Assembly: GCA_025358455.1 (NCBI GenBank)
Contig: JANYJP010000133.1
Location: forward strand, 10,852-74,851
Source: Bacteroidales bacterium
GTDB lineage: Bacteria > Bacteroidota > Bacteroidia > Bacteroidales > VadinHA17
Length of the DNA: 64,000 bases
Direction of reading: 5' to 3'
Shown: in pieces, positions 20,768 through 46,760 of the stretch
How positions within the stretch are numbered: position 1 is the stretch's first letter
Layout of the letters: each line of letters opens with the position of its first letter
Position numbers and translations under genes: made by a program
Notes under the pieces: model-generated
The model's database searches: none
What the model was told of the DNA's origin: nothing
What the model saw: the letters and a program-made list of their open reading frames with translations, nothing else

Positions 20768-22189
20768 TTAAAGAAGGTTTTTTACAGCTTCCTGAATAAG
20801 ATTAATCATCCCTGATGGAGGATTTATTCCTAAATAAAATACCAGCGCTAAAAGAAAATACTGAGTCAATGTTTCTGAAGGATTTGGTTTTTCCTGAGCA
20901 GGAAGCAGATCTTTCGTCTGGTTAAACAAGATATATAAAAAGTTTTTTGCCAGGCTGTACATTGCAATTGAAAGAAAGAACAATACCAGTATAAAAATGA
21001 AGATGTGTTCAGATGTAAACAAAGCTTTAAATATCCAGAATTCAGTTACAAATAAACCAGATGGAGGCATAGCCGTTATTGAAATTAGTATCAATAGAAA
21101 GACCAGAGCCCCGGGCAGATTTCTGTTAAAGTAATTTCCGGTTTCATTGATCATATACGTTTTGAAATTGCGGTGAAACTGGTCAATCTGATAGAAAACG
21201 CTCGCTTTCACAAATGAGTGAAGTATCATATGAAAAATAGCTGCAAAGTAGCCTATGCCTCCTGAAGCGATCCCTATTGCTGCCAGGCCCATGTGTTCAA
21301 TGCTTGAATAGGCGCTCATCCGTTTCAGATGAGTCACTTTTAACAGATAAGCTGCTGAAACAATTATGGAAATCAGGCCGCATAAAAATAATATAGTGTT
21401 CATCCATGGCAGGATAGATGTATGAGCAAAAATTGAATAAGTGCGAAAGATGGAAACGAATCCTACATTCATCAGTGTGGTTGAAATAAATGCGCTTATA
21501 GGAGGAGGAGCCACAGTATGTGCGTCAATTGCGGCGGTGTGCATCGGGAAAAGACCCATCTTTGTACAAAAGCCGACTATCATAAAAAGAAAAATCATTT
21601 TCAGCCATGATGTATTTACACGAAGCAACTGAGCCGGAATTGCATTAAATGAGAAATTGGTTATTTCTGTTTCACCAATGGCAATACTTAACAGGATGAT
21701 ACCGATAAAAGTTATTGTTATTCCAATGGAACATATAAATACATATTTCCATGTTGCTTCAAGAGAAAGTGGAGTCCGTTCATGATATATTAACACTGCG
21801 ACACTCAGTGTAGTCAATTCAATAAAAACCCACATTACCCCAAGGTGTGAAGCCAGATAGGCACAAGTCATTACAATTATCAGCATAATCAACGCTGCAA
21901 AGTAAAAGCTTTGAGAACGGCTGCTGTCTTTCCTGTGCTTAAGATAGATGAAGCTATGATAAAAAGTTGTAAAACTTAATATTGTAAGCACACACAAAAA
22001 TATAACCCCAAGAGCATCGGATTTAAAATATCCGGAACTTATTTCATTCAGATGAAAGTATGCGTAAACGGTAATGGCTGTTTGTACGGCCAAAAACGTG
22101 CTAAGTAGAATAATGCGAACCATACAGTTTCGGTTGAGCATTGAAACTATTCCTATCAGAAAACCTATAATAAGATAATAACCAAACAT
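20768..22189 (-). CDS. HyfF / NuoN-like antiporter-type membrane subunit (Ehr-like, copy 1)
   Basis: Proton_antipo_M-type polytopic protein. About 14 TM helices. Conserved FIELTTLS, TKMGLFPMH and HSFVKA motifs. Confidence 0.8.
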   Translation of the reverse strand: MFGYYLIIGFLIGIVSMLNRNCMVRIILLSTFLAVQTAITVYAYFHLNEISSGYFKSDALGVIFLCVLTILSFTTFYHSFIYLKHRKDSSRSQSFYFAALIMLIIVMTCAYLASHLGVMWVFIELTTLSVAVLIYHERTPLSLEATWKYVFICSIGITITFIGIILLSIAIGETEITNFSFNAIPAQLLRVNTSWLKMIFLFMIVGFCTKMGLFPMHTAAIDAHTVAPPPISAFISTTLMNVGFVSIFRTYSIFAHTSILPWMNTILFLCGLISIIVSAAYLLKVTHLKRMSAYSSIEHMGLAAIGIASGGIGYFAAIFHMILHSFVKASVFYQIDQFHRNFKTYMINETGNYFNRNLPGALVFLLILISITAMPPSGLFVTEFWIFKALFTSEHIFIFILVLFFLSIAMYSLAKNFLYILFNQTKDLLPAQEKPNPSETLTQYFLLALVFYLGINPPSGMINLIQEAVKNLL

Positions 22190-22194
22190 TTATA

Positions 22195-22824
22195 CTAATC
22201 CTTTAAATTGGTTAAGTTATCAACATTCATCTCCTCAAAGGTGTTCCCTATCCGGTTTACAAAAACACCCAGGACAAGCACACTTACAAATATGTCAAGC
22301 GTTATTCCTGAATTCACAAGCATTGGCATTTTGTTACCTGCCGAAAGGGATAAAATGAATACTCCGTTTTCTATTACCAGGTAACCCATTATATGGGTAA
22401 TAATCTTTTTTCGGGTGATGATAATAAACAACCCTGATAACAATGCAGAAATTGCTACTAAAAAGAACATTTTACGGATATGTACACCGGTTATAATATT
22501 TGACAAAATGAAGGACCCGAGCAGGAAGCAGGTTATAATAACAACAGAAAGAAAATCAGGCAGATAAGGTTGTGCTTCCCTGACGATATTATTCTTTTTA
22601 ATAACATAATTCAGAAATAACGGAATAGCAAGAGTTTTAAAAACAATTGTCTCAAATAAAATAAAAATCAGGTTGATAGTATTGATCTGGATAAGTTCAA
22701 TGAATGATACTCCAAAAAGAATGATTCCCTGCACTGCAAGTATGTTAATATAGGTAGAAAGTCTGTTTGCAATTCCCATGTAAATAAGGCTGATGGCAAA
22801 TGTTATAAGCAGAATATTGACCAT
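22195..22824 (-). CDS. HyfE-like small membrane subunit (copy 1)
   Basis: 209-aa polytopic protein, paralogous to 30883-31515. It occupies the HyfE position between the HyfC-like and HyfF-like genes. Confidence 0.7.
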   Translation of the reverse strand: MVNILLITFAISLIYMGIANRLSTYINILAVQGIILFGVSFIELIQINTINLIFILFETIVFKTLAIPLFLNYVIKKNNIVREAQPYLPDFLSVVIITCFLLGSFILSNIITGVHIRKMFFLVAISALLSGLFIIITRKKIITHIMGYLVIENGVFILSLSAGNKMPMLVNSGITLDIFVSVLVLGVFVNRIGNTFEEMNVDNLTNLKD

Positions 22825-22838
22825 TTATGATTCTCTTG

Positions 22839-23753
22839 TTAAAAATATTTACCCAATATCAGGAGCACAGCAAAAAATATTAATAGCGAAATAGAACTAA
22901 TAGTGAAAATGAACTGAGGATTATGATTCATCCTGAACCTGGCAATGAAGGATTCTAAAGTTCCAACGACAACAGCAAAAAGAGCCTGTACTCCAATAAA
23001 AATTGGAATGGAATAGTACCATTCTCTTCCCGGTGTAAGAAAAAAGTTAGCTATTAAAGCCCCGTACATGGCAAATTTCAGATTGGTGGCATGAAGGATG
23101 AGTCCAAGATCAAATCCACTGTTGTCAAGGACCATAACCTCATGAATCATAGTCAGCTCAAGATGTGTCTTCGGGTCATCAACAGGCATCCGGCTGTTTT
23201 CGATCATAGCAATTAAAACCAGGACGAATGAAGCCAAGATCCCTATAGCGTAGGAAATATACGAACCAAACTGGATGCCACTAAAAATATCTGCGAAGGA
23301 ACTATATCCGGTAAGAAGAGCCAGTGAACCCATAAGAATGAAGAATGCGGGTTCGGCAAGAAAAGAATACAATGCTTCACGACTGGCTCCCATACCTTCA
23401 AAACTGCTACCGGTATCTAAAGCGCCGATAATACTGAAAAATTTGCCTACAGCCAGTATATAGGCAAAAAACACAAAATCACCATCAAACGAGAATATTC
23501 CTTTCTGATTTCCAAAAGGAATTAGCATGATAGCAATCAATACTGAAGCAAAATAAATATCAGGGGCAATTTTAAAAATAAAACTTGTAGTCTGGCTGTA
23601 CACATTTTCTTTCCGTAATAATCGCCAGATATCTTTCATGGGCTGAAAGATGCCGGGACCCTTTCTGCCTGAGAAAATGCTTTTTGTCCGGATGACTATT
23701 CCTAGGAAGAAGAAGCTTGTTATAATGATAAGAATAAAAACTAACCCGGCCAT
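22839..23753 (-). CDS. HyfC / HycD / NuoH-like membrane subunit (copy 1)
   Basis: NADHdh-family pattern including ENSRMPVDDPKTHLELTMIHEVMVLDNSG. 304 aa. Confidence 0.8.
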   Translation of the reverse strand: MAGLVFILIIITSFFFLGIVIRTKSIFSGRKGPGIFQPMKDIWRLLRKENVYSQTTSFIFKIAPDIYFASVLIAIMLIPFGNQKGIFSFDGDFVFFAYILAVGKFFSIIGALDTGSSFEGMGASREALYSFLAEPAFFILMGSLALLTGYSSFADIFSGIQFGSYISYAIGILASFVLVLIAMIENSRMPVDDPKTHLELTMIHEVMVLDNSGFDLGLILHATNLKFAMYGALIANFFLTPGREWYYSIPIFIGVQALFAVVVGTLESFIARFRMNHNPQFIFTISSISLLIFFAVLLILGKYF

Positions 23754-23754
23754 A

Positions 23755-25797
23755 TTACATCTGTTTTATAAGGTTAAACAAATAAGCCGCTATACCACTT
23801 AAAAGCGAAATAATCATGATGATAAATATGAAAATCACCCCGTATAATATATAATAACGCATATTCCCGTTTTGAATAAACCGGACACGCGCCATTATTT
23901 TATTCATGATTTTCAATGGAAAATCAACAAAGGCAGCTTCAATCTTATCATAAGGATGTGTCTCGGAATGAATCGGACTTGAAAATACTCCTTTTATATC
24001 TCCCTCCTTTTTATTCATTAACAGAAACGGTCTAATCAGCTTTCTGTATGAGCGTACATATGAGCTGGCGGTGTATTGCATTTTACTGTTAGGTGCAACA
24101 TAACCGCAAGCCCAGGTTGGTGTTATAACCTCTTTTTTATTACGAAGAACAAATCGTTTTATTGTCGCTATCAATGCAATTGCTAGTATAAATGCCCAGG
24201 TTACCAGGCTTATCGACCGAAGATTATTGCCGATCATTACTGCCGGGAACCCATCCTTTAAACCGGATGTAAATAAACTTACCGGGTTGGTCAGGAGCTT
24301 TAAGATAAGCTGAGGAAACAGTCCGATAAAAATAATAAATATGACTATAAGATAACCAGGAAATAGTTTTGATTTTTCTGCTTCCTTAATATCATTATCG
24401 AACTGGCTTCTTGCCTCTCCAAGAAATATAATGCCAAAAGCCTTTGTAAAACACAGAAGCGCCAGACCTCCTATCAGAGCAAGTCCGGCAATACATAAAA
24501 TACAAAATGTAGTAATTGATAAAGATCCCGAATGGACACCTTCAAAAAGGCCAAGGTAGATCAAAAACTCTGAAACAAATCCATTGAATGGCGGCAGGCC
24601 GCAGATAGCCATAGCGGAAACAAGGAACAGGAAAGCTGTATGTGGCATTTTTTTGATCAAACCTCCCATACTGTCGATATTTAATGTATGAATTGCCTGA
24701 TAAACTGTTCCGGCCCCGTAAAACAATAATGATTTAAACAACGAATGGTTAAGCACATGCAATAATGCCCCTGCAAAACCGGCAAAAGCCAGGTACGGGT
24801 TTTTTATTCCAATGCCAATCGCCCCGATTCCGATTCCGATTCCGATAATGCCAATATTTTCAATACTATGATATGCAAGCAATTTCTTTAGATTATGCTG
24901 AATAATAGCCAATACCACACCATACACCCCGGATATTATTGAAATAGTTAAAATAATATATCCGATAGTCAGGTAATTCTGGTTCACTAATAGAAGCATT
25001 CTTAAAATACCGAAAATACCCAGCTTGATCATGACCCCCGACATTACTCCTGAAACATGAGCTGGTGCCACAGGATGGGCATATGGAAGCCATGTATGGA
25101 AAGGTACAAAACCAGCTTTAATTGCAAAACCGATAAAAAAACACAGGTACAGGGTAAGGCTAATCAAAGGTGATACTGACGCGCTGTATGCGGTAATTGT
25201 GTTAAAGTCATATGACCCCGTATGCGAACTGATCCATATAAGCCCAATGGTAAGTAATAAAATGCATATATGCGATTGTATCAGGAAGTTGACCGCTGCT
25301 CTTAAAGTTTCCGGTTTTTTGTATTCAAAAATAACCATTATAAACGTCGACAGAGCCATAATTTCCCAGTCATAAAGAAATGCAAGACTGTTCTGTATGG
25401 CAAAAATTCCAATCATACTTGCATGATTGATAATAAAACATACAAAATGCAATGGGATCATTCCGGACTTATTTTCATATTGCTTCATGTAACGCCTGCC
25501 ATAAAGTATGCCGGTAAGAACAGTGAAGTTCATCATTAAAATAAACCAGCCTGAAAGAGCATCTATCCTTATTGGAATTTCGCCAAAAACAGGACCCCCA
25601 TGTATAATTTCAATGTAAGAGTGTCCTAAAACGGCATTGACAGCAACCCATGAACTAATTCCTGCATTAATTATTACGGCGCCAAGAGCAATGTTACCTG
25701 ACCATGCCTCTTTGGAAAAGCTGATAAACAGTATAAATAATGCAGTTACTAAAAGTATGCAGATACTCAAACTCATTTGTGAATGGTAAAATTTCAA
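23755..25797 (-). CDS. HyfB / NuoL-like antiporter-type membrane subunit (copy 1)
   Basis: 680 aa. Motifs WEIMALS, IKAGFVPFHTWLPYAHP and NHSLFKSLLF. The true start may be the internal MSLSICILL. Confidence 0.85.
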   Translation of the reverse strand: MKFYHSQMSLSICILLVTALFILFISFSKEAWSGNIALGAVIINAGISSWVAVNAVLGHSYIEIIHGGPVFGEIPIRIDALSGWFILMMNFTVLTGILYGRRYMKQYENKSGMIPLHFVCFIINHASMIGIFAIQNSLAFLYDWEIMALSTFIMVIFEYKKPETLRAAVNFLIQSHICILLLTIGLIWISSHTGSYDFNTITAYSASVSPLISLTLYLCFFIGFAIKAGFVPFHTWLPYAHPVAPAHVSGVMSGVMIKLGIFGILRMLLLVNQNYLTIGYIILTISIISGVYGVVLAIIQHNLKKLLAYHSIENIGIIGIGIGIGAIGIGIKNPYLAFAGFAGALLHVLNHSLFKSLLFYGAGTVYQAIHTLNIDSMGGLIKKMPHTAFLFLVSAMAICGLPPFNGFVSEFLIYLGLFEGVHSGSLSITTFCILCIAGLALIGGLALLCFTKAFGIIFLGEARSQFDNDIKEAEKSKLFPGYLIVIFIIFIGLFPQLILKLLTNPVSLFTSGLKDGFPAVMIGNNLRSISLVTWAFILAIALIATIKRFVLRNKKEVITPTWACGYVAPNSKMQYTASSYVRSYRKLIRPFLLMNKKEGDIKGVFSSPIHSETHPYDKIEAAFVDFPLKIMNKIMARVRFIQNGNMRYYILYGVIFIFIIMIISLLSGIAAYLFNLIKQM

Positions 25798-27946: not shown

Positions 27947-29964
27947 TTAATATTCTAATTATCATATTATTATCATCCATCATCTCTGTGCTGTTTGTCA
28001 GTACAAAAAGTAAAGGTATTATTACAGTTGCAACAGTAATTGTCATTGCGTCCCTCAGCAGCTTTTTTTCAATAAAAGCGCTCTTTGGTGAAAGTTATCA
28101 GGTTGTTTTATCAGGAACAATAATGTTTGGAAAAGTGCCGGTAATTATTGATTCTTTATCCGCATGGTTTATACTTACAATTAATTTCACAATTGTGACC
28201 GGCGCTATGTATGGTTTTAATTATATGAAAAAGTACAGGGAAAAGAAGAATGAGATCACACTACACTGCATCGCTTTCCTGCTGGTTTATTTCGCATTAT
28301 TGGGAATAAGTTCTGTTCAAAACGGATTTATCTTTCTTTTACTATGGGAATTAATGGCGCTTTCAGCTTTTACTCTTGTAATATTTGAACACGAAAAACC
28401 TGAAACAATTAAAGCCGGGCTTAATTATCTTATTCAATCACATTTCAGTATCGTTTTCATAATGCTGGGGTTTATATACGTTGCTTTCAAAACAGGAAGT
28501 TACGGGTTTGATGCAATTGTTAGTTTTTCGGGTAATCAATCAGTGCTGGCAGGAACAGTGCTTTTTCTCTGCTTCTTTATAGGTTTTGCTATAAAATCAG
28601 GTTTCGTTCCCTTCCATACCTGGCTTCCTTATGCTCACCCGGCTGCACCTACACATGTTTCCGGAATAATGTCCGGTGTTCTTATTAAGATTGGTATTTA
28701 TGGTATCCTCAGGATGTTACTGTTAATCAGAACCGACTACACTACAATTGGTTATATAATATTGTTTATATCATTATTTACAGGGATTTATGGCGTAATG
28801 CTGGCTACTATCCAACACAACCTTAAGAAGTTACTTGCATACCATAGTGTCGAAAACATTGGTATAATAGGAATAGGAATAGGATTAGGTTGCATAGGAT
28901 TAGGGTCATCAAATAAATGGATGGCAATATTAGGATTCTCCGGTGCATTACTTCATACATTGAATCATTCATTATTTAAATCTCTTCTGTTTTACAGTGC
29001 CGGTAATATTTATCAGGCGGCTCATACACTAAATGTGGAGCGCTTAGGTGGATTAATTAAAAAGATGCCACAAACTGCTGTTCTGTTCCTGGTTGCTTCG
29101 ATTGCCATTTGTGGACTGCCACCTTTGAACGGTTTTATCTCGGAATTTCTTATTTATGGGGGGTTGTACAATTGGCTTTACAGCGCAAATCTGATTTCAC
29201 TCATAGCAATAGTGTTTTCAATAGGTGGATTAGTATTGATAGGAGGTCTGGCACTACTCTGTTTTACAAAAGCATTCAGTATCGTGTTCCTTGGAAATTC
29301 ACGAGAGAAACATGATGATGAAATTTACGAAACAGGTTTCTGGCAGTTATTCCCGATGTATCTTACGGTTTCGTTAATGATATTAATTGGCCTGTTCCCG
29401 TCTTTTTTCATAAATGCATTAAAACGACCTGTTGCCCTTTATTTGCAGAGTGCAGTTTTTGACCAGAATATTATTAAGGTTGGTGTAGTTGATTCGCTTC
29501 AGACTATTAGTTGGTTATTCTTCGGACTTATATTATTTGTATTAGTTATTGTTGGACTAAGAAAACTTATTACCAGGAAAAAAAATATTGAAATTGGATC
29601 AACCTGGGGTTGTGCTTATAACAATCCAACGAGTAAACTACAATATACAGCCAGTTCTTACGTCCGCAGTTACTCAAAACTTGCTAAACCTCTTCTGGAT
29701 ATAGAGAAAAATGAGGTCGGGATTGACGAGGTTTTTCCGGCAGAGAAACATTATGAAACAGATCCTTATGATAAAATTGAGCGCATTTTTATTGACAAAC
29801 CATTAAAACTGATAAACAGGATTACCGATCCGTTTCTATTTCTTCAGAATGGACGTTTACAGACATACATTCTGTATGGAATTATCTTTATTGCCTCTGT
29901 AATTGGCCTTCCTCTTATTATTGAAAAGATAATATCAATTTTTCATTTTTTAAATAATTTGTAA
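27937..29964 (+). CDS. HyfB / NuoL-like antiporter-type membrane subunit (plus-strand copy B2)
   Basis: 675 aa. The TTG start overlaps the upstream stop by 10 nt. Motifs WELMALS, IKSGFVPFHTWLPYAHP and NHSLFKSLLF. This is the closest paralogue of 23755-25797. Confidence 0.85.
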   Translation: MALINILIIILLSSIISVLFVSTKSKGIITVATVIVIASLSSFFSIKALFGESYQVVLSGTIMFGKVPVIIDSLSAWFILTINFTIVTGAMYGFNYMKKYREKKNEITLHCIAFLLVYFALLGISSVQNGFIFLLLWELMALSAFTLVIFEHEKPETIKAGLNYLIQSHFSIVFIMLGFIYVAFKTGSYGFDAIVSFSGNQSVLAGTVLFLCFFIGFAIKSGFVPFHTWLPYAHPAAPTHVSGIMSGVLIKIGIYGILRMLLLIRTDYTTIGYIILFISLFTGIYGVMLATIQHNLKKLLAYHSVENIGIIGIGIGLGCIGLGSSNKWMAILGFSGALLHTLNHSLFKSLLFYSAGNIYQAAHTLNVERLGGLIKKMPQTAVLFLVASIAICGLPPLNGFISEFLIYGGLYNWLYSANLISLIAIVFSIGGLVLIGGLALLCFTKAFSIVFLGNSREKHDDEIYETGFWQLFPMYLTVSLMILIGLFPSFFINALKRPVALYLQSAVFDQNIIKVGVVDSLQTISWLFFGLILFVLVIVGLRKLITRKKNIEIGSTWGCAYNNPTSKLQYTASSYVRSYSKLAKPLLDIEKNEVGIDEVFPAEKHYETDPYDKIERIFIDKPLKLINRITDPFLFLQNGRLQTYILYGIIFIASVIGLPLIIEKIISIFHFLNNL

Positions 29965-29965
29965 A

Positions 29966-30871
29966 ATGTTAAGTATAATACTAATACTATTCACCAGCAT
30001 TTTCTTTACAGGGATAATCATCAGAACCAAAAGCATCGTTTCAGGTAGAAAAGGCCCCGTTATTTTGCAGCCAGTTAAAGATGTGGTCAGGTTATTTAAA
30101 AAAGGTGCTATTTACAGTGAAACAACAAGTATTATTTTCAGAATAGCCCCGGTAATCTACTTTTCCACAGTATTTATGGCTTGCCTTGTTGTTCCGTTTG
30201 GATCATATAAGGGCATTGTAAGTTTCGACGGAGATTTTATTTTCTTCGCATACATTCTTGCTTTAGGTAAATTCTTTAGCATTATTTCAGCTATGGATAC
30301 GGGAAGTAGTTTTGAAGGGATGGGGGCAAGCCGTGAAGCATTATTCTCAATGTTTGCCGAACCTGCCTTCTTCATTCTTATAGGTTCTTTTGCTCTGTTT
30401 ACCGGCAATACATCATTCCATAATATCTTTTCAACATTACATCTTGGCTCGTCAATAACGTATATGTTGGGAGGACTGGCCGCTTTTGTATTGCTGATGA
30501 TTTCAATGATCGAAAATAGCAGAATGCCTGTGGATGACCCCAAAACCCATCTTGAACTAACTATGATCCACGAGGTTATGATACTTGATAACAGTGGTTT
30601 TGATCTTGGTTTAATACTTTCAACCGGATACCTTAAATTTGCAATGTATGGAGCAATTATTGCTGATTTCTTTATAGGCGGATTATTCCTGATTTGGGCT
30701 ATTCCTTTATTTTTAATGATACAGGTACTATATGCAATAATGATAGGGTTAATTGAATCCTTTATGGCTCGCTTCAGAATGAACCATAACCCTCAGTTTA
30801 TATTGACCCTTTCGTCGGTCAGCTTTCTAATCTTCCTGGGCGTGCTACTTGTTTTGGACAAATTTGTTTAA
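29966..30871 (+). CDS. HyfC / HycD / NuoH-like membrane subunit (copy 2)
   Basis: 301 aa. About 70% identical to 22839-23753 over a hand-counted 146-residue stretch. It carries the same ENSRMPVDDPKTHLELTMIHEVM motif. Confidence 0.8.
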   Translation: MLSIILILFTSIFFTGIIIRTKSIVSGRKGPVILQPVKDVVRLFKKGAIYSETTSIIFRIAPVIYFSTVFMACLVVPFGSYKGIVSFDGDFIFFAYILALGKFFSIISAMDTGSSFEGMGASREALFSMFAEPAFFILIGSFALFTGNTSFHNIFSTLHLGSSITYMLGGLAAFVLLMISMIENSRMPVDDPKTHLELTMIHEVMILDNSGFDLGLILSTGYLKFAMYGAIIADFFIGGLFLIWAIPLFLMIQVLYAIMIGLIESFMARFRMNHNPQFILTLSSVSFLIFLGVLLVLDKFV

Positions 30872-30882
30872 TATTTTATATA

Positions 30883-31515
30883 ATGACAAACGTCTTATTA
30901 ATTATATTCATTATCAGCCTTTTATATGTTGCAATTGCTAACAGGATCATTACCTATGTGAGAGTTCTTGCGTTGCAGGGATGTCTGCTCTTTGGCGTTA
31001 CATTCCTTCAGTTGCGTGAAATACAGACATGGAACCTGGTCCTTATCCTGCTCGAGACTATTGTTTTTAAAGCCGTGGCTGTTCCGGTATTTTTGGGTTA
31101 TCTGATTAAGAGAAACAAGATTACCAGGGAAACTGAACCTTATTTGCCGCACTTCATCTCACTGATAATAATTACAATGATTGTAGTTATAACGGTCCTG
31201 CTCGCGAATTCAATACAGGATACCCATCTTGATAAAATATTCTTCATAGTATCTCTCTCAACTCTATTTACCGGGTTGTACTTCATAGCCACAAGGAAAA
31301 AGATTATTACACATGTTATGGGATATCTGATGATTGAGAATGGAGTTTTTGTTCTCTCCCTGGCAGTCGGTAACGAAATGCCAAACCTTGTCAACCTGGG
31401 TATAATGCTTGATGTATTTGCCAGTGTATTGATACTGGGGATTTTCCTCAACAAAATAGGTGATGTTTTTAAAGATGTTGATGTTGACAAGCTTACCAAT
31501 TTGAAAGATTATTAA
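30883..31515 (+). CDS. HyfE-like small membrane subunit (copy 2)
   Basis: 210 aa, a paralogue of 22195-22824. The shared C-terminus is ...KKIITH.MGYL.IENGVF.LSL...LTNLKD. Confidence 0.7.
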   Translation: MTNVLLIIFIISLLYVAIANRIITYVRVLALQGCLLFGVTFLQLREIQTWNLVLILLETIVFKAVAVPVFLGYLIKRNKITRETEPYLPHFISLIIITMIVVITVLLANSIQDTHLDKIFFIVSLSTLFTGLYFIATRKKIITHVMGYLMIENGVFVLSLAVGNEMPNLVNLGIMLDVFASVLILGIFLNKIGDVFKDVDVDKLTNLKDY

Positions 31516-31526
31516 TCACTGAAATA

Positions 31527-32954
31527 ATGACTTTGATATATCTGATATGTGCTTTTGTAATTGCCGGATTACTTTTGATAAACAGGAATACTGTTTTAAA
31601 TTATATAATGGTTATTCTCTTTGGTATTATTCAAACCGGATTTACTATCTACGCAGGGTTTCATTATAAAAATACAGTTTTAGAATATTTTTCTTTCGAT
31701 TCTTTAGGATTGCTTCTTCTGGTTGCTTTGAGCATTGTGACTATTCCAGCCCTTATTCACAGCTATTTGTATATTAAAAGGCACAATGAGACACCCCAGT
31801 CCAGGGCTATATATTTTTCAGCAATTGTCATCCTTTTAACGTCAATCAGCGCTGCTTATCTTGCCAACCATATTGCTGTTATATGGATTTTTACAGAGAT
31901 GACAACATTATCGGCTTCTATGCTGATTTATCATCACAGGAATAAACTTGCATTGGAGGGAACCTGGAAGTATGTGTTTATATGTGCAATAAGTATCACT
32001 TTTGTTTTTATCGGGATTCTTTTTCTAAGCCTTTCGCTTCAGCATGCCGGATCAACTGATCTCTCTTTTTCCAACCTGATGGCTCATAAAGATCAGCTGA
32101 ACACATTCTGGCTTAAACTGGCATTTCTTTTTATTTTTACAGGTTTTACAGCAAAGCTCGGATTGGTCCCGATGTATACAGCTGGTATAGATGCAAAGGA
32201 TAAAGCGCCAGCCCCTGCAGGTGCTTTACTTGCAAGCGTACTGATGAATCTTGGGTTTGTCGGAATATTCAGGTTCTATGCAGTTATTGCTCATACATCT
32301 ATTTTTCACTGGGCTAATCTGATCATCTTTTTTGCGGCTTTTATTTCAATATTTGTTGCAACTGTATACATGACTAAGGTTATGAATATTAAAAGAATGT
32401 TAGCCTATTCCGGAATTGAACATATGGGTATTGTAATGCTTGGAATAGCAGCAGGGGGAATTGGCTATTATGCAGCTATTCTGCATATTATATTGCACAC
32501 TTTTGTGAAATCGGGTATATTTTTTCAATACAATCAGTTATACAGAACGTTTCAGAGCAAAAGTATTCAGCACGTGGGCAACTATTTTAAGTATAATCCC
32601 ACAGGAGCAATTGTGTTGCTTATAGGGTTTATAAGTGCAACTGCTATGCCCCCTTCCGGATTGTTTGTAAGTGAGTTCCTGATCTTCAAATCACTCTTTG
32701 ATGGCAACTATATAGTGTTACTGGTTCTTGTATTACTTTTATTGACGATTGTTATATGGGCCTTTGGAAAGAATATCTTGAAAATTCTGTTCCTTCCCGT
32801 GCCTGATATAGATGAGAGTAAAATACCAAAAATAAGCCCTTGGGAATCATTAACTCAGTATGTATTGATGTTTACAGCAATCTGGCTGGGACTAAATCCA
32901 CCGGCAATATTTGTTCAGTTAATTCAGGATGCAGTTAAAATCTTACCTAATTAA
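31527..32954 (+). CDS. HyfF / NuoN-like antiporter-type membrane subunit (copy 2)
   Basis: 475 aa. Motifs FTEMTTLS, AKLGLVPMY and HTFVKS. Confidence 0.8.
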   Translation: MTLIYLICAFVIAGLLLINRNTVLNYIMVILFGIIQTGFTIYAGFHYKNTVLEYFSFDSLGLLLLVALSIVTIPALIHSYLYIKRHNETPQSRAIYFSAIVILLTSISAAYLANHIAVIWIFTEMTTLSASMLIYHHRNKLALEGTWKYVFICAISITFVFIGILFLSLSLQHAGSTDLSFSNLMAHKDQLNTFWLKLAFLFIFTGFTAKLGLVPMYTAGIDAKDKAPAPAGALLASVLMNLGFVGIFRFYAVIAHTSIFHWANLIIFFAAFISIFVATVYMTKVMNIKRMLAYSGIEHMGIVMLGIAAGGIGYYAAILHIILHTFVKSGIFFQYNQLYRTFQSKSIQHVGNYFKYNPTGAIVLLIGFISATAMPPSGLFVSEFLIFKSLFDGNYIVLLVLVLLLLTIVIWAFGKNILKILFLPVPDIDESKIPKISPWESLTQYVLMFTAIWLGLNPPAIFVQLIQDAVKILPN

Positions 32955-32955
32955 A

Positions 32956-34455
32956 ATGAGCTTCATAACAATAAAAAACCATCAACCAGTTCCGGTTAAC
33001 ACAATACCGGAACTAGAGTATGATATATTTTATAATCTAAATATATCCTTGCTCGCGGAACATCCTGAAAGACATTGCGTTTTGTATTTTGGTTACAGGG
33101 TGCTTGATGTAATACGACTAATGTGTTGTGTTGCAGATGATATTCAGCATAATATCCTGATTTCTTCTTCGATTGTCAGAAGCGATTCCAAACTCAATTC
33201 TTTTTCTGCAAAAAACCTTTCTTTCGAAAGATTTGAACGCGAAATTCATGAAAACTTCGGTATTGATTATATCGATCATCCATGGCTAAAACCGGTTCGT
33301 TATTCTGAATATAGGATTGATAAATCCAAGACGATTCATAACTATCCGTTTTTCAGCATTGAAAGTGAAGAACTTCATGAGGTGGGAGTAGGGCCGGTGC
33401 ATGCAGGTATAATAGAACCCGGACATTTCAGGTTTATATGTAATGGCGAACAGATATTGCATCTTGAAATTCAGTTAGGTTATCAACACAGGGGCTTGGA
33501 ACAATTACTCCTTGATAAAACAAAACTAATTCAGCGAACTACCTTGGCTGAATCCATAGCAGGCGATAGTGTTATTGGCCATACAACAGCATTTGCATAT
33601 TTATTAGAAAGCCTCAGCGGAACAGTACCTGAGAGTGAAGTCATCTATTCACGAACACTTGCACAGGAACTGGAACGAATTGCGGTTCATACCGGCGACT
33701 TAAGCGGAATTTGCACCGATGTTGCCTATCAACTGGGTAGTTCTGTATTCGGAAGACTCAGAACCCCAATAATCAATTTTTTCCAGGAATGGTGCGGGAA
33801 CCGTCTGGCTAAAGGATTAATCCGTACCGGTTACAACCCATTTCCATTTAGCAAAGCTCTGTCTGAAAGGTTAACTACAATATTAGATGCATTTGAACCA
33901 GATTTTGTTGAAATGAATGGCGAGCTTTCAAAACTACCAAGCTCTTTATCGAGATTTGAGAGAACCGGCACCTTGAAATATGATCAGTTATTGTCAATCG
34001 GCACAGTTGGAATGTCAGCCAGGATGAATGCCCTGAACAGGGATATAAGAATGTCGCACCCTTATGGCAGATATCCTGAGTTAAATCACGAACCAATTCT
34101 AAAGCATCATGGTGATGTATATTCAAAAGTACAGATCAGAAAACAGGAGGTATTGCAGTCAATAGAATATATAAGGAAATGGTTGAATCAGATTCCTGAA
34201 TCAACAAAGACTCAACCTCAACCAGTTACTCTGAAGCCTGATTTATTTGCAATCTCTCTGACAGAAGGGTGGAGGGGTGAAATATGCCATGCTGCCGTGA
34301 CAAACAATAAAGGTGAACTGGTGATTTATAAGATTAAGGATCCTTCGTTCCACAACTGGCTTGCGTTGGCATTATCGGTAAGAAACAATGAAATTTCTGA
34401 TTTCCCGGTAATTAATAAAAGTTTTGATTTGTCGTATTGCGGACATGATCTTTAA
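32956..34455 (+). CDS. NuoC-NuoD / HycE-like 'large subunit' homologue lacking [NiFe] ligands (EhrL-like)
   Basis: The ATG at 32956 lies 1 nt after the upstream stop. There is a NuoC-like FERFEREIHENFGI...HPW segment and then GPVHAGIIEPGHFRF...YQHRGLE, as in HycE. The metal-ligand motifs are mutated: SIAGDSVIGH instead of RVCGICGFAH, and DLSYCGHDL* instead of DPCYSCTDR. Confidence 0.8.
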   Translation: MSFITIKNHQPVPVNTIPELEYDIFYNLNISLLAEHPERHCVLYFGYRVLDVIRLMCCVADDIQHNILISSSIVRSDSKLNSFSAKNLSFERFEREIHENFGIDYIDHPWLKPVRYSEYRIDKSKTIHNYPFFSIESEELHEVGVGPVHAGIIEPGHFRFICNGEQILHLEIQLGYQHRGLEQLLLDKTKLIQRTTLAESIAGDSVIGHTTAFAYLLESLSGTVPESEVIYSRTLAQELERIAVHTGDLSGICTDVAYQLGSSVFGRLRTPIINFFQEWCGNRLAKGLIRTGYNPFPFSKALSERLTTILDAFEPDFVEMNGELSKLPSSLSRFERTGTLKYDQLLSIGTVGMSARMNALNRDIRMSHPYGRYPELNHEPILKHHGDVYSKVQIRKQEVLQSIEYIRKWLNQIPESTKTQPQPVTLKPDLFAISLTEGWRGEICHAAVTNNKGELVIYKIKDPSFHNWLALALSVRNNEISDFPVINKSFDLSYCGHDL

Positions 34456-34473
34456 ACCTAAAAGACAAAAACG

Positions 34474-35226
34474 ATGTTAAAGACATTACAAATTCTGTAT
34501 CATCAGGGCAAACAATACATTCCGGATCTAAGAAAAGCAAAAGTTCCCGGAATATTCAGGGGTCGCCCTGAAATCAGCTCTGAAAAAGTTGACGAAAAGA
34601 CTTTAGCGGATATTTGTCCGACAAATGCAATTTTGGGAAATCCTGTAAGGATTGATCTGGGTAAGTGTACTTTTTGTGCAGAATGTTCAAGGCTTTATCC
34701 TGGTAAAATTCATTTTACTACAGATTACAGGATGGCTGTAAATGAAAGAGAAAGGTTGATAATTTCTGAAGGTGTTTTAACCCCGATTACACTGAACCCC
34801 GGTCTGATAAGAAATGAAATTCATAGATTATTTCATGGATCTCTTAAGCTCAGGCAGGTTTCAGCAGCAGGTGACAATAGTTGTGAACTGGAGCTTAATG
34901 CTGCAGGAAATGTAAATTTTGATATAGGTCGGTATGGAATAGAGTTTGTTGCATCACCCCGTCATGCTGATGGGATTGTGATTACCGGACCTGTATCCAA
35001 AAACATGGCTGAACCATTACAGATTACTTATGATGCCATACCGTCACCTAAAATAATTATTCTCGTGGGGACTGATGCAATAAGCGGCGGTATTTTTGAT
35101 AGCAGCCCGGCACTTGACAGAAGATTTATTGAGGAAAACCATATTGATTTGTATGTACCAGGGAATCCGGCTCACCCGCTAACTTTCATAAATGGGATAA
35201 TGGATTTATTAGGAATAAACACCTAA
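34474..35226 (+). CDS. fused HycF(NuoI)-like half-ferredoxin + HycG(NuoB)-like 'small subunit' with degenerate cluster ligands (EhrS-like)
   Basis: The N-terminal part reads FRGRPE...ADICPTNAI...CTFCAECSRLYP. The C-terminal part has the Oxidored_q6-type SPRHADGIVITG motif. Its cluster motifs are altered to GDNSCELE, GTDAISGGIF and PGNPAHP. Confidence 0.75.
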   Translation: MLKTLQILYHQGKQYIPDLRKAKVPGIFRGRPEISSEKVDEKTLADICPTNAILGNPVRIDLGKCTFCAECSRLYPGKIHFTTDYRMAVNERERLIISEGVLTPITLNPGLIRNEIHRLFHGSLKLRQVSAAGDNSCELELNAAGNVNFDIGRYGIEFVASPRHADGIVITGPVSKNMAEPLQITYDAIPSPKIIILVGTDAISGGIFDSSPALDRRFIEENHIDLYVPGNPAHPLTFINGIMDLLGINT

Positions 35227-35353
35227 ATTCCCCTTAGTTTTACCTCCCAACCACCTAACGGGCATAGCCGGTAAAGCTAAGGTTTTAAATATAGTAAAAT
35301 AGTGCCCTTTATACACATCTTAGTAAACTGGTTTTCTCACTCTTTGCAGAGCA

Positions 35354-35640
35354 GGAGATCCTTCGCTGGCGCTACTAACAAACCCCTTTCAGGAGTACCA
35401 TAATGGGATCGGGAGATCCTTCGCTGACGCTCAGGATGACAATGCCCTTGATGATCACAGGGGGCAGAAGTGGCGATTCGCAGGCGAATTGCTTAATTAA
35501 AAAGGTAACTCGAATCGCCACTTCTGCCCCCCATAACCACCTAATTGCCATGTCATTCCGAGCCCCGGCGAGGAATCTCCACTAGCCGTTACAGATCTTT
35601 GTAAATAATGTCATATTGTTTGGTGTGCAAATTTGTATAG
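35354..35640. repeat. composite GC-rich palindromic repeat cluster (MITE/REP-like)
   Basis: Direct-orientation units lie at 35354-35380 and 35411-35459. An inverted unit at 35551-35580 (tgtcattccgagccccggcgaggaatctcc) is followed by a ~60-nt tail. The same module recurs at 61549-61637. Confidence 0.7.
35460..35531. other. perfect 21-bp-stem hairpin nested inside the repeat cluster
   Basis: gggggcagaagtggcgattcg (35460-35480) is the exact reverse complement of cgaatcgccacttctgccccc (35511-35531). The loop is 30 nt. Confidence 0.8.
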
Positions 35641-35671
35641 TAACTTATACAAACTATAGTTTATATAACCC

Positions 35672-35725
35672 CACCCTGTCTGCCGGCAGGCAGGGTGCAT
35701 TTTGCATTTTTACTTTTTACTTTTG
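35672..35725 (+). terminator. putative rho-independent terminator
   Basis: The near-palindrome caccctgtctgcc/ggcaggcagggtg has one mismatch. It is followed by a T-rich tract, cattttgcatttttactttttacttttg. Confidence 0.4.
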
Positions 35726-35742
35726 TCTTTTGTCTTTTAATA

Positions 35743-35786
35743 CCCTTGGCCCTGCGCTCTGTGCCCTTGGCCCTGCGCCCTGCGCC
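35743..35786. repeat. short GC-rich tandem repeat
   Basis: cccttggccctgcgc occurs at 35743-35757 and 35764-35778, followed by a further cctgcgcc. It abuts the ggt stop codon. Confidence 0.7.
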
Positions 35787-35788
35787 TC

Positions 35789-37477
35789 TCAATACCCTGC
35801 CGCCTGTCCGTCTTTTCTTGACTCAGATGCACCGAACCACACTTTGTTTTTATCATCCCACATAATGGCCTGGTAACCACCATAATCACCAAGATTCCAC
35901 TGAACAGTATGTCCCATTTTGATCAGTTTTTGAATTACCTCCCAACGGAACCCGTTCTCAAGCTGAAGGATCCCGCCATCTGTCATCTGTTGTCCTGTTG
36001 GCTCTGATGATCCTACATGATGTATCCTTGGAGCGTCACCTGCCTCCTGCAGGTTCATTCTAAAATCAATAAGGTTAACTACAATCTGAACATGTCCCTG
36101 AGGCTGCATATCTCCGCCCATGACCCCAAAACTGATCCATGGCTTGCCATTTTTAGTTATGAAGGAAGGGATTATTGTATGAAACGGCCTTTTTCCCGGT
36201 GCGTATACATTATTATGACCTTCTTCAAGTGTAAACATCTCACCTCTGTCCTGCAGAACGAAACCAAGTCCGGTAGGACACATACCTGAACCCATTCCGC
36301 GATAGTTGCTCTGTATCAGAGAAACCATATTGCCAAATTTATCAGCTACGGTGAGATATATTGTATTTCCTGCTTCAATTCTCCCGGGATCATAGATTCT
36401 TGCAGCCTTATTTAGATCAATTAGCTTCCGTCTTTCAGCAGCGTATTTTTTTGAGATAAGTTGTGCTACAGGTATTTTACTGAAAACCGGGTCAGCGTAA
36501 TATTTTGCACGATCTTCGAATGCCAGCTTCTTTGCTTCGGTGAAAACGTGAATATATTCTGAAGAACCAAATCCCATTGAAGTAATATCAAATCCCTCAA
36601 GAATATTAAGCATTTGCAGGGCAGCAATTCCCTGTCCGTTTGGTGGAAGTTCCCAAACTTCATAACCACGATAAGTTGTGCTTATCGGCTCCACCCATTC
36701 AGAATGATGACGTGATAAATCATCATAAGACAGGAATCCACCCTGTTTTTTCATGAATGCATCAATATCTCTTGCTATGCTTCCCCTGTAAAACTCATTT
36801 CTTCCTCCTCTGGCAATTTTATCCAGCGTATTGGCGAGCATTGGGTTTCTGAATACCTGGCCTTTTGCAGGGGCCTTACCCCCAGGCATATATACCTCTT
36901 TAATATTAGGATATTCTTTCAGAAGTTCGGTATTTTTGCTGAGTGCATAAGCAATGACTTCAGTCACTGGAAATCCTTCCCTTGCATAATTGATAGCTGG
37001 CTGAAGAAGCTCTTTCATTGGAAGCTTGCCAAACATATCATGCATTTCATACCAGCCATCTACACATCCCGGAACCGAAACAGGCAGTGGACCAAATGAA
37101 GGAATAAACTGGTACCCTTTTTCCCTGAAATATTCAAGTTTAAGTGATCTTGGCGATCTACCGCTTCCATTAAGACCATACAGTTTGCCTTTTTCCACGC
37201 TCCATATAATGGCAAACAGATCACCTCCCACGCCTGAGCCGGTTGGTTCTACTACCCCCAGAACTGCATTGGCAGCAATTGCGGCATCGATTGCATTCCC
37301 TCCTTTTTTCAGGATATCCAGCGCCACCTGAGTAGCAAGGGGTTGACTTGTTGCTGCCATTCCGCCCCGTGCAATTACCTCGGATCTTGTCGCAAAGTCA
37401 TGACCCGTTACTCTATCCTGGGAAATGGCAAAGCCCGGTATTAACAAAGCAATTAATAATAAAAAAAATCTTATCAT
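35789..37477 (-). CDS. ggt: gamma-glutamyltransferase
   Basis: Full-length GGT family resemblance, with signal peptide MIRFFLLLIALLIPGFAISQ from the ATG at 37477. The Ntn-hydrolase processing region is GNTIYLTVAD, and a MGGDMQPQGH motif is present. Confidence 0.9.
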   Translation of the reverse strand: MIRFFLLLIALLIPGFAISQDRVTGHDFATRSEVIARGGMAATSQPLATQVALDILKKGGNAIDAAIAANAVLGVVEPTGSGVGGDLFAIIWSVEKGKLYGLNGSGRSPRSLKLEYFREKGYQFIPSFGPLPVSVPGCVDGWYEMHDMFGKLPMKELLQPAINYAREGFPVTEVIAYALSKNTELLKEYPNIKEVYMPGGKAPAKGQVFRNPMLANTLDKIARGGRNEFYRGSIARDIDAFMKKQGGFLSYDDLSRHHSEWVEPISTTYRGYEVWELPPNGQGIAALQMLNILEGFDITSMGFGSSEYIHVFTEAKKLAFEDRAKYYADPVFSKIPVAQLISKKYAAERRKLIDLNKAARIYDPGRIEAGNTIYLTVADKFGNMVSLIQSNYRGMGSGMCPTGLGFVLQDRGEMFTLEEGHNNVYAPGKRPFHTIIPSFITKNGKPWISFGVMGGDMQPQGHVQIVVNLIDFRMNLQEAGDAPRIHHVGSSEPTGQQMTDGGILQLENGFRWEVIQKLIKMGHTVQWNLGDYGGYQAIMWDDKNKVWFGASESRKDGQAAGY

Positions 37478-40493: not shown

Positions 40494-41738
40494 TTATTTC
40501 ATATTCATCCAGAATTTTTCCTCAGATTTCTGAAGACCCATTTTTTTCTTTCTTGTCAGTAGAAGATAATATGCTATCCCGATTGTCCCAAATATAAAAA
40601 TACCCAGGAGGAAATACTTTATTATTGATGACGCATAGGCCTGACTGTAATTCATAGTATTGGTGATCTGTTCAGCTGCAGCGATTTGTTCACCGGTATT
40701 TGATCCTACATTAATATTGAAGATATTCTTCATGAAGAAGAGTAGAAAAAATGTCAATAAACCCGATGCAACAGGTGAAATTAACCATGCCAGACCTATT
40801 TCCCCAAGCACTTTAAAATTAATATTTCTCACCCCTTTATATAAACCAATTCCCAGAATGCAGCCAACAATAACCTGCGAACTTGAAACCGGGACCATTG
40901 GAATACGTGGAAGGCCTATTGATACGATAAAATCGGACAAACCTGTCGATGAAAAAATGAATAGCACCAACGACTGGGCTAGAACGACCACCAATGCTGC
41001 TTCCGAAGAAAGTTCTAAAATGTTACTCCCTATTGTGTCCATTACTTTCCAGGAATAGGTAATAATGCCTGTCGAGATTGCAAGTCCTCCCAGAAGAAAA
41101 AGTTGCTGGTTTGAATTAAGGGTTATGATCCACAGGTTAAGATCTTGTAGATTGAAAGCCGGAATAAATACACCCATAACATTGGCAATGTTGTTTGCAC
41201 CAAGACTATAAGCCCCGAAAGCCCCTACAACTACCAATCCCGTTTTAATATATGACTCAAATCTGATAAGATGTATCCTGACTGATCTTTTAAATTTTTT
41301 AAAAAGTATATATAGTGCAATTGAGAAAACAGCCCCTATAACCGGTCCTGCAATCCAGGCTGCTACAATAGTTGACAAGGTTTTGCTGTCCGTCCTGTTT
41401 CCGGTGAAAAAGTTCCATCCGATTATTGCACCTACGATCGCCTGCGTTGTGGAAATAGGGAGTGCAAATTTTGTCATCATATAGATTGTAATAGCAGCAG
41501 CGAGCGCTACTGTGAACGATCCTCCGATCGCATTAACAGCTCCAAGTTTTCCCAATGTTTGCGAGGTTCCTGATCCCTGAATAACAGCACCAAGGATAAA
41601 AAAAACAGACGCTATAATAGCTGCTTTTCTGAAAGTTACCATCTTCGAGCCAACCGCTGACCCGAAAATATGGGAAGCGTCATTAGCTCCGAGTGACCAA
41701 CCCAGAAATAGACCGCTGGTAAGGAAGAAGAGGATCAT
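40494..41738 (-). CDS. inorganic phosphate transporter, PiT family
   Basis: Duplicated PHO4 signature (GANDASHIFGSAVG and GANNIANVMG). Polytopic. Confidence 0.85.
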   Translation of the reverse strand: MILFFLTSGLFLGWSLGANDASHIFGSAVGSKMVTFRKAAIIASVFFILGAVIQGSGTSQTLGKLGAVNAIGGSFTVALAAAITIYMMTKFALPISTTQAIVGAIIGWNFFTGNRTDSKTLSTIVAAWIAGPVIGAVFSIALYILFKKFKRSVRIHLIRFESYIKTGLVVVGAFGAYSLGANNIANVMGVFIPAFNLQDLNLWIITLNSNQQLFLLGGLAISTGIITYSWKVMDTIGSNILELSSEAALVVVLAQSLVLFIFSSTGLSDFIVSIGLPRIPMVPVSSSQVIVGCILGIGLYKGVRNINFKVLGEIGLAWLISPVASGLLTFFLLFFMKNIFNINVGSNTGEQIAAAEQITNTMNYSQAYASSIIKYFLLGIFIFGTIGIAYYLLLTRKKKMGLQKSEEKFWMNMK

Positions 41739-41796
41739 TTTATTTAAGATAAATGAGCTTGTTTTATTTAATTTTGCTTGTTCTCACTCCTTGCGC

Positions 41797-42447
41797 CTAC
41801 ATAACTATCTTAATCGCCATCCCCGAAAGCAGATCTGCCGCTTTCTGTGCCAGATCTGAAATGTTTTCTACATGATGGATTATATACCTCAGATGTGCCT
41901 TATGTGCAAGATCAAGTTCTTTCATTTCCTGAAAGATGATCCTTTTCATGTTAAAGGATATCTTATCTGTCTCGCTTTCAAAATAATAGACTTTTAGTAA
42001 TTTTTCCCTTACAGTATATGGTGCCTTGAAGTAAGCCCTTGCGGCGGGAATAAGTTCTTCTGCAGCGCTTACTGATGTTTCGGAGAGACTGATGAAGTTC
42101 TTATTTAGCGATGACGGGATATCCGGCATCTCAATACATATCTCGTTTAAAGAGCTTTTAAGAGCATCTATTATCTCATCCAGTTCGTCAATGAGAGTAC
42201 TGACCTCTGCTCTGTGTTGCGGCAGGATAGAATGTGTTATCATTTCATTTTCAATCGAACGCTGAAGCCTGTCGGCATTATTTTCAAGCGAATCAACCTT
42301 CTGAAGATGCCTGTTAAAGGCTTCCATATCTTTATCCAGAAATGCTTTTATAGCCTCCTTGAAAACCAGCAGACCCAGATCGATATTATCAAAGAACTCA
42401 TCGATCTTTAGTATCAGGTTTTTAGTTGTTCTTGTAAAAACAGGCAT
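41797..42447 (-). CDS. DUF47 / PhoU-like phosphate-transport regulator partner of PiT
   Basis: All-helical 216-aa protein from the ATG at 42447 (MPVFTRTTK...). It sits in the canonical position upstream of a PiT gene. Confidence 0.7.
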   Translation of the reverse strand: MPVFTRTTKNLILKIDEFFDNIDLGLLVFKEAIKAFLDKDMEAFNRHLQKVDSLENNADRLQRSIENEMITHSILPQHRAEVSTLIDELDEIIDALKSSLNEICIEMPDIPSSLNKNFISLSETSVSAAEELIPAARAYFKAPYTVREKLLKVYYFESETDKISFNMKRIIFQEMKELDLAHKAHLRYIIHHVENISDLAQKAADLLSGMAIKIVM

Positions 42448-42758
42448 TTTACTAAGTTTTAGGTTAGATAAACAAATATAAAACAAAAGCCCTTAACCGC
42501 AAAACGACACCATGGCTCATCGGCTCTAAGGCTCAATAGTTACATATCTCAACTTAATACCCATTAAGCCGTTACGCCAATATGCCTTTGCCCTGTTTTG
42601 CCGTATCATCTTTATGAAATCTTTATATGTTATTAAGTAATCCTTATATATTCCTTATGGGCATTGCATTATTTTCGCACGATATACATGCATCAGAAGT
42701 TGATTTATGAAAACCTTTAACTGAAAAAATTGTTATTGGGATTACTGACAGGAAGAAT

Positions 42759-45055: not shown

Positions 45056-45066
45056 AACAAATAAAT

Positions 45067-46752: not shown

Positions 46753-46760
46753 TCTCTAAG

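Follow-up and report, generated by a model that had tools for sequence, protein, structure and literature searches.

Among proteins of solved structure, both halves of the protein described here, a putative iron-sulfur (Fe-S) small subunit encoded in a stretch of 64,000 nucleotides from a Bacteroidales bacterium (GCA_025358455.1, contig JANYJP010000133.1; this whole stretch is called the window in the following), have their closest homologues in HycF (HyfH) and HycG (HyfI) of the E. coli formate hydrogenlyase/hydrogenase-4 and in MbhN and MbhJ of P. furiosus. In both systems the two proteins are separate and together hold three [4Fe-4S] clusters, through which a NiFe site is connected to ferredoxin or formate dehydrogenase. 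The same folds are found in complex I/NDH-1, where NuoI holds the clusters N6a and N6b and NuoB the cluster N2. According to the assignment made for NdhI, the ligands of N6a are Cys1-3 from the first Cys motif and Cys4 from the second, and those of N6b are Cys4 from the first motif and Cys1-3 from the second (PMC6358722); electrons pass from ferredoxin over N6a and N6b to N2 (PMC6358722; PMC6616624).

With regard to gene order, the closest described system is the Ehr complex of Geobacter sulfurreducens, GSU0739-45, which comprises EhrA-1, A-2, B, C, D, L and S (PMC7894505). In the literature, Ehr designates a gene cluster similar to group-4 hydrogenases whose large subunit lacks the NiFe-binding CxxC motifs and whose function is unknown (PMC6349859; PMC7304191; PMC10284858). 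In the papers available, the class is defined by the large subunit only (PMC7894505; PMC6349859; PMC10284858). The operon in the window has a seven-gene layout identical to that of Geobacter, with two NuoL-like, one NuoH-like, one HyfE-like and one NuoN-like subunit in addition to L and S. In departure from what the Ehr definition covers, the proximal and distal clusters appear to be lost from its small subunit as well, while the middle one is kept. The Ehr class itself is thus already known, and the graded loss of small-subunit clusters together with the strict retention of an N6b-type ligand set would be, as far as we found, the new element. A literature search, which did not reach key subscription papers, so that an earlier description is possible, returned no account of either. 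Searches joining Alistipes, Bacteroidetes and Ehr likewise gave nothing specific.

A Fused Small Subunit With a Single Ligand Set

The open reading frame (ORF) of 250 amino acids contains all motifs quoted in a first-pass annotation of this DNA, namely KVDEKTLADICP (residues 38-49), CTFCAECSRLYP (residues 65-76), AAGDNSCELE (residues 131-140), SPRHADGIVITG, GTDAISGGIF and PGNPAHP. Its C-terminal half matches Pfam Oxidored_q6 (residues 136-245, E = 2e-19) and, among the chains of the PDB, MbhJ (5e-21), HycG (2e-17) and many NuoB/PSST chains. Searched as a single sequence, the N-terminal half gave a weak match to HycF (E = 0.025), and Pfam Fer4 remained below its cut-off. Because of this weak match a profile was built from 21 N-terminal domains, every one of which has the four Cys only. 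This profile matched HycF residues 1-108 with E = 7e-15, E. coli NuoI with 1.5e-11 and MbhN with 8.5e-10, and the likeness reaches beyond the Cys motifs to the N-terminal helix, an FRGRP motif and the region after motif 2. AlphaFold2 gave a confident model of the complete subunit, with a predicted local distance difference test (pLDDT) value of 94.2 and a predicted template modeling (pTM) score of 0.90. In Foldseek, its C-terminal domain was superimposed on MbhJ with a template modeling (TM) score of 0.84 and a root-mean-square deviation of 1.7 Å, HycG and NuoB chains also being among the top matches. As NuoB chains filled the Foldseek list, it is informative on the C-terminal domain and says nothing on the N-terminal one.

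These results show that the small subunit joins a ferredoxin domain of the NuoI/HycF type to a domain of the NuoB/HycG type, as had been noted before from the letters and as Pfam, PDB and profile matches now support. The fusion is no peculiarity of this gene, however, since it is the usual architecture of the family, including members with three and with two clusters, and the joining of both Fe-S subunits has already been recognised by annotation pipelines (names given by JGI).

In HycF/NuoI-type subunits, two CxxCxxCxxxCP motifs provide eight Cys. The small subunit has kept Cys4 of motif 1 and Cys1-3 of motif 2, whereas the other four are gone. C48-P49 forms the end of motif 1 and C65, C68 and C71 the start of motif 2, the spacing being C48-x16-C65-x2-C68-x2-C71 and not C-x15-CxxCxxC as initially given. 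The retained Cys thus make up one complete ligand set, in agreement with the first-pass annotation, and this is exactly the N6b set of the published NdhI assignment (PMC6358722). It therefore appears that the middle cluster of an ancestral three-cluster wire, the one adjoining N2, was kept, and that both of its neighbors, the distal N6a and the proximal N2, were lost. Judged by its ligand residues, the small subunit probably binds one [4Fe-4S] cluster at the N6b position.

The C-terminal domain has the NuoB/Oxidored_q6 fold but not the full set of four Cys which hold the proximal/N2 [4Fe-4S] cluster in HycG/MbhJ and NuoB. D134 and C137 are aligned with the CxxC of HycG (CNGC) and MbhJ and with the CC of Nqo6, and in the alignment with HycG, D201 takes the place of the Cys of GACGNSGG and N231 that of the Cys of PGCPP. 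Three of the four ligands are therefore replaced, and C137, the one Cys remaining, is not conserved, which bears out the loss of the proximal/N2-type set proposed earlier. A NuoB ligand set in a shifted register was ruled out, because the alignments to HycG, MbhJ and Nqo6 are ungapped across all three motifs.

Compared to HycF/HycG, the protein from the window accordingly is one polypeptide with one ligand set, without a NiFe site to serve and without the C-terminal extensions of HycF and HycG. Compared to complex I, NuoI and NuoB are fused, N6a and N2 are missing, and the NuoD homolog has no quinone-binding Tyr.

Conservation of Retained and Replaced Ligands

The relatives fall into close orthologs, proteins of an Alistipes type, and distant representatives. 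The scan for close orthologs used one genome per species and found a relative in at least 116 genomes, from which 80 loci with 64-83% identity were kept. Together with the query, 81 sequences were used for measuring conservation. Almost all of the 80 loci are from metagenome-assembled genomes (MAGs) of Bacteroidota, and the taxa include Bacteroidales, Prolixibacteraceae, Lentimicrobiaceae, Lutibacter, Paludibacter, Saprospiraceae and Ignavibacteriaceae. In metagenomes, the family amounts to about 8000 distinct protein clusters at 90% identity.

C48, P49, C65, C68, C71 and P76 are invariant in these 81 sequences, in which fully invariant columns make up 24% of all. The N2-replacing residues D134, D201 and N231 are invariant as well. 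Position 137, in contrast, varies (C in 62, T in 11, A in 3, N in 2, S in 1 and G in 1). The four Cys were also found in all 119 proteins of a gut Alistipes clade (46-56% identity to the query), which was recovered with a profile of those distant representatives that have the N6b set only, and in 26/26 proteins of intermediate position, which nearly always have an Asp at 134 or 137. In the Alistipes proteins, the former N2 positions are occupied by D/E, V, E/D and A/T/V. Across the orthologs, the Alistipes-type proteins and the 16 members of a sister clade described below, the four Cys thus do not vary freely.

In the Ehr contexts, the conservation of the NuoB-like domain (80%) exceeds that of the ferredoxin domain (63%), and the same holds in Alistipes (59 vs. 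43%). The domain that has no cluster is therefore still under strong constraint.

Distant relatives were collected by an exhaustive HMMER search of 50%-identity representatives, which gave 3924 matches. All representatives in which one single match covers both domains were taken, giving 38 proteins of 30-52% identity, or 39 with the query. Many further irregular representatives resemble frameshifted or truncated gene calls. Within this set, the four Cys are present in 38/39. Only 11 of the 250 columns are conserved at 97% or more, the four Cys being among them (hypergeometric p = 2e-6, phylogeny ignored). Their selective retention, seen by the first-pass annotation as an argument for function, thus lies far above background conservation both here and in the 81 orthologs.

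All three ligand sets were found in 15 of the 39 representatives, N6b and N2 only in eight, N6b only, as in the query, in 15, and N2 only in a single one (P0151). No representative has lost N2 while keeping the distal set (p = 5e-5 by the hypergeometric test, again ignoring phylogeny), and because this class is empty, the distribution suggests that loss of the distal cluster preceded that of the proximal one. Such a nested loss, which reaches the distal, then the proximal and almost never the middle cluster, would form an evolutionary series from a wired to an unwired enzyme.

The variant is hence present in at least 116 species-level genomes of Bacteroidota, cultured gut Alistipes included, and its presence in the latter means that biochemistry may be feasible. 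The isolate Alistipes sp. An54 (GCA_002159375.1) carries a cluster-poor Ehr operon with a single NuoL-like gene (L085, 1847-10765), in which the large subunit is likewise without NiFe Cys. In this isolate, a pectinesterase gene is inserted between the genes of the large and the small subunit, and chromate-transporter genes follow the small subunit.

Two further observations concern the ortholog set. One contig labeled as a Chloroflexota MAG (L022, JBLNAO010000017.1) contains the operon at 76% identity; as its flanking genes match relatives from Bacteroidales, this is probably a binning error. In one Ignavibacteriaceae MAG the locus is found on two contigs (L060 and L061) whose match statistics do not differ; probably either the contig is present twice or the locus was duplicated recently.

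Operon, Large Subunit, and Membrane Arm

The small-subunit gene is the last of a seven-gene operon (25922-35226), the genes of which are co-directional and partly overlap (Table 1). The order A(1-2)-B-C-D-L-S is kept in every ortholog locus with enough flank. The membrane subunits have their best matches in HyfB, HyfE and HyfF. In an NCBIfam scan of the operon subunits no model passed its cut-off, the best model for EhrA1 being hydrogenase 4 subunit B (2e-137) and that for EhrC hydrogenase 4 membrane subunit (5e-21), both below cut-off. In line with the literature criteria, genes for group-4-hydrogenase-like large and small subunits are clustered with NuoH-like and antiporter-like subunits, and both NiFe-binding CxxC motifs are missing from the large subunit. 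Hence, the operon most likely encodes an Ehr complex, an assignment that rests on architecture and the loss of the NiFe motifs.

Table 1. Position of the Ehr operon, the small-subunit domains and ligand residues, and a paralogous operon in the window.
Feature	Positions	Strand	Basis
EhrA1, HyfB/NuoL-like antiporter-like subunit, 674 aa	25922..27946	+	Proton_antipo_M 1e-52
EhrA2, HyfB/NuoL-like antiporter-like subunit, 675 aa	27937..29964	+	Proton_antipo_M 3e-55
EhrB, NuoH/HycD-like subunit, 301 aa	29966..30871	+	NADHdh 5e-33
EhrC, HyfE-like membrane subunit, 210 aa	30883..31515	+	Oxidored_q2 1e-5
EhrD, HyfF/NuoM/N-like antiporter-like subunit, 475 aa	31527..32954	+	Proton_antipo_M 2e-43
EhrL, NuoC-NuoD/HycE-like large subunit without NiFe cysteines, 508 aa	32929..34455	+	HycE 4e-31, MbhL 2e-28
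EhrS-type small subunit, HycF/NuoI-like and HycG/NuoB-like fusion, 250 aa	34474..35226	+	Pfam, PDB matches, model
HycF/NuoI-like ferredoxin domain, N-terminal, aa 1-100	34474..34773	+	Four-Cys profile vs. HycF, NuoI
Retained ligand set: C48 (34615-34617), C65 (34666-34668), C68 (34675-34677), C71 (34684-34686)	34615..34686	+	Codons checked
NuoB/HycG/MbhJ-like domain without cluster ligands, C-terminal, aa 125-250	34846..35223	+	HycG, MbhJ, Nqo6 alignment
Former NuoB-type ligand positions: D134, C137, D201, N231	34873-34875, 34882-34884, 35074-35076, 35164-35166	+	
Membrane-only paralogous operon (HyfB-, NuoH-, HyfE-, HyfF-like), divergent from the main operon	20768..25797	-	ORFs
aa, amino acids.

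EhrL reads AGDS in place of the CGIC of HycE and DLSYCGHDL in place of DPCYSCTDR, with A211, S214, S502 and G505 at the positions of the NiFe ligands. None of these positions has a Cys in any of 70 EhrL orthologs (A/S/T/V, S/T/A/N, S and G, respectively), and the neighboring C504 is variable, which supports the earlier description of the active site as dead. Both the NiFe ligands and the continuous Fe-S wire that characterize a functional [NiFe]-hydrogenase are therefore absent. No Hyp maturation genes were seen among the ORFs of the window that were examined, not every ORF having been scanned. The equivalent of Nqo4 Tyr87, the quinone ligand of complex I, is a Gly that is invariant among the 70 orthologs. 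In the same set, E163, H166, R168, E208, G212, D213, S502, Y503, G505 and D507 of the pocket are invariant, and H218 and H506 nearly so. As both the residues replacing the N2 ligands and the polar residues round the dead NiFe site are invariant, D134, D201 and N231 may together with the polar residues of EhrL form a rebuilt polar or ion site, and the pattern suggests something other than an empty cavity.

All three antiporter-like subunits have retained the motifs of the Glu of transmembrane helix (TM) 5, the Lys of TM7 and the Glu of TM12, as judged from alignments of EhrD with MbhH and NdhB and from the sequences themselves. In the 10-kb flanks of the ortholog loci, neither a conserved redox partner nor any other consistently adjoining gene was found.

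A Sister Clade Linked to DAB Operons

A sister clade of 16 members, mostly linked to DAB genes, was found outside any Ehr operon. Its proteins of about 230 amino acids contain the four Cys in 16/16 cases and share 54% identity with the query in the N-terminal and 32% in the C-terminal domain. Their NuoB domain is decayed, with the ligand loop deleted. A cluster consisting of a small ORF, the EhrS-like gene, a SulP transporter, a putative porin, DabA and DabB is conserved in five contigs from four samples (e.g., L081 235-9364, L082 9498-18772, and L083 2441-11688). The designation as putative porin relates to a protein of 435 amino acids with a weak Porin_O_P match. It was also considered as a degenerate large subunit, a possibility ruled out, since BLASTP and PDB searches were empty and the weak porin match was the only one.

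DAB is described as a proton-coupled, electron-transfer-independent CO2-hydrating pump on a NuoL-like subunit (10.64898/2026.03.13.711513). This preprint presents the DAB2 structure as consisting of two subunits, DabA2 and DabB2, and a search of it by terms found no mention of iron-sulfur or NuoB (10.64898/2026.03.13.711513). DAB pumps thus resemble the operon studied here in their NuoL-like subunit, DabB, and an EhrS-like sister protein is encoded in DabA-DabB-SulP operons, whereas the window itself has no DabA. Going by gene content, these loci show that the single-cluster module can probably operate without a NuoD-like partner beside a NuoL-type channel, and such an arrangement is easier to reconcile with regulation or coupling than with an electron relay. 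From its occurrence in DAB operons, one may surmise that the module is used more widely in regulation.

Functional Interpretation

The lone [4Fe-4S] cluster would be unable to pass electrons to the EhrL pocket, since with N2 gone it would lie too far away for direct transfer, going by the geometry of complex I and MBH. From this we infer that the complex acts neither as a hydrogenase nor as a quinone reductase. The reading which we favor, if by a narrow preference over all others combined, is that of a machine translocating protons or cations, in which the cap formed by L and S is kept for structure and for conformational coupling and the cluster is structural and/or redox-sensing. As a structural element, the cluster would stabilize the ferredoxin domain, and it could possibly report the redox or oxygen state to the pump. 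The triad of D134, D201 and N231 would fill the old N2 site or re-purpose it as a polar site, perhaps for an ion. Mrp-type multisubunit cation/proton antiporters, which have antiporter-like subunits with the Glu/Lys motifs as found here and work without redox chemistry, might be the most suitable functional analogy, although they contain neither homologs of NuoB, NuoD, NuoI, and NuoH nor an Fe-S cluster. A cluster kept without a part in electron transfer has a precedent in N7 of NuoG in bacterial complex I, an off-pathway [4Fe-4S] cluster that is too far away for electron transfer and is kept as a stabilizer of the protein. N7 is found in another subunit and fold and next to a working chain, whereas in the complex considered here no chain remains.

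Several points weigh against this interpretation. The presence of the cluster is itself predicted from ligand residues, and to our knowledge ion translocation has never been measured for any Ehr complex. The conserved polar pocket, made up of E163, E208, D213, H218, S502, Y503, H506, and D507 of EhrL together with the triad of the small subunit, suggests a specific chemistry or an ion site, for which a cap with a purely structural role would have no use. Among the distant relatives, P0151 has lost the core Cys and kept the N2 set. Two further proteins, P0121 and P0140, show the query-like D-C-D-N pattern in the NuoB domain, yet their N-terminal ca. 75 residues are unrelated and do not contain the four Cys; in P0121, the likeness to the query begins abruptly at residue 77. 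Frameshifts in the gene calls may account for these two, or they may be real variants without any cluster. Moreover, the retained cluster is invariant in three- and two-cluster members which clearly use it as a relay, and its retention here could therefore reflect electron transfer to an unseen acceptor.

This last point leads to the most serious rival, in which the single cluster is a working relay: a ferredoxin or flavodoxin would reduce it, and the electrons would go to an unknown substrate or metal nearby, at the D134/D201/N231 site or in the EhrL pocket, giving a redox-driven pump with new chemistry. The ancestral role of the cluster was electron transfer, given that the same four Cys are invariant in members with an intact wire, and the eight representatives without the distal cluster take electrons straight into the N6b-type one. 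The replacement residues and those of the EhrL pocket are invariant, as expected for a functional site, and the Ehr subunits of Geobacter were more abundant in formate-grown cells than in hydrogen-containing conditions (PMC7894505). On the other hand, neither the N2 nor the NiFe positions have kept cofactor ligands of a known type, the triad differs between clades, as the residues in Alistipes demonstrate, and no redox partner gene is conserved beside the operon. Physiological electron tunneling is limited to roughly 14 Å, and the distance from N6b to the pocket, by homology to complex I, exceeds this limit. Taken together, we regard a relay as unlikely.

It might also be argued that the wire is not really broken and that the old N2 site holds a metal center, either an unusual Fe-S cluster or a mononuclear metal, by means of Asp, Asp, Asn and C137. 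Single Asp ligands to [4Fe-4S] clusters do occur, and both the invariance of the three replacement residues in the 81 orthologs and the frequent Asp at 134 or 137 in the intermediate clade would agree with such a center. However, C137 is exchanged for T, A, N, S or G in 19 of the 81 orthologs and for V in Alistipes, where position 231 is A, T or V; the corresponding loop is deleted in the DAB-linked clade, and we know of no [4Fe-4S] site with three non-Cys ligands. This renders a non-Cys center quite improbable. A decaying hydrogenase relic with an accidental Cys pattern, for which one could cite the loss of 7/12 ancestral Fe-S ligands of the small subunit and of 4/4 NiFe ligands of EhrL, is rejected on conservation and has next to no probability in our view: the ORFs are intact, the gene order is conserved, the species-level genomes concerned are numerous, protein identities of 64-83% go along with many invariant residues, the replacement residues among them, and the family is abundant in metagenomes and occurs in cultured Alistipes.

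Bringing in the DAB-linked clade, one can speculate that the single-cluster module is a new type of Fe-S gate by which NuoL-type proton channels respond to redox state or oxygen. In Ehr complexes, the module would be placed on the rebuilt Asp/Glu/His pocket of EhrL, and this pocket would either bind an ion or couple proton flow to catalysis without redox chemistry, such as the interconversion of CO2 and bicarbonate; in other Bacteroidota, DabAB/SulP inorganic-carbon pumps would have taken over the module, but not the large subunit, for their regulation or energization. As a whole, this proposal appears improbable at present.

Under the favored reading of an ion-translocating machine, the complex would represent a natural dissection of the complex I superfamily, in which the pumping arm and a peripheral cap are conserved and one isolated cluster is the sole canonical redox site. 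This would make it possible to test whether ions can be moved without electron transfer and what share the peripheral arm has in coupling.

Further Features of the Window

Divergent from the main operon lies a paralogous operon restricted to membrane subunits, which encodes a HyfB-like protein of 680, a NuoH-like one of 304, a HyfE-like one of 209 and a HyfF-like one of 473 amino acids and contains no gene for a large or small subunit. Its products share 43-68% identity with the corresponding subunits of the main operon. It was found only in the closest relatives (L001 and L004) and looks like an insertion, as other relatives have a GH109/GFO-type gene directly before the main operon. In a further relative (L069), the membrane genes of the main operon itself are closest to these paralogs (71-79%). 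The paralogous operon may share the single pair of L and S or may work alone.

An Rfam scan of the window found nothing, and a scan of it for sigma-70 promoters and terminators was uninformative, as expected for promoters of Bacteroidota. Downstream of the operon (40494-52918), the window contains ordinary genes of ion homeostasis, which encode a PHO4 phosphate transporter and a PhoU-like protein, a protein of the amino-acid-permease family, kdpABC and kdpD/kdpE, the kdp genes lying outside the 10-kb flanks compared among relatives. The intergenic region of about 560 nucleotides 3′ of the operon (35330-35800) is rich in G+C-rich palindromes, across which spurious ORFs were called. A long perfect hairpin is found at about 35462-35530 between inverted copies of a 'gggagatccttcgct...' / '...ggcgaggaatctcc' element, and a further stem of 11 bp at 35672-35697. 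These palindromes look like repetitive extragenic palindromic (REP) or miniature-element sequence.

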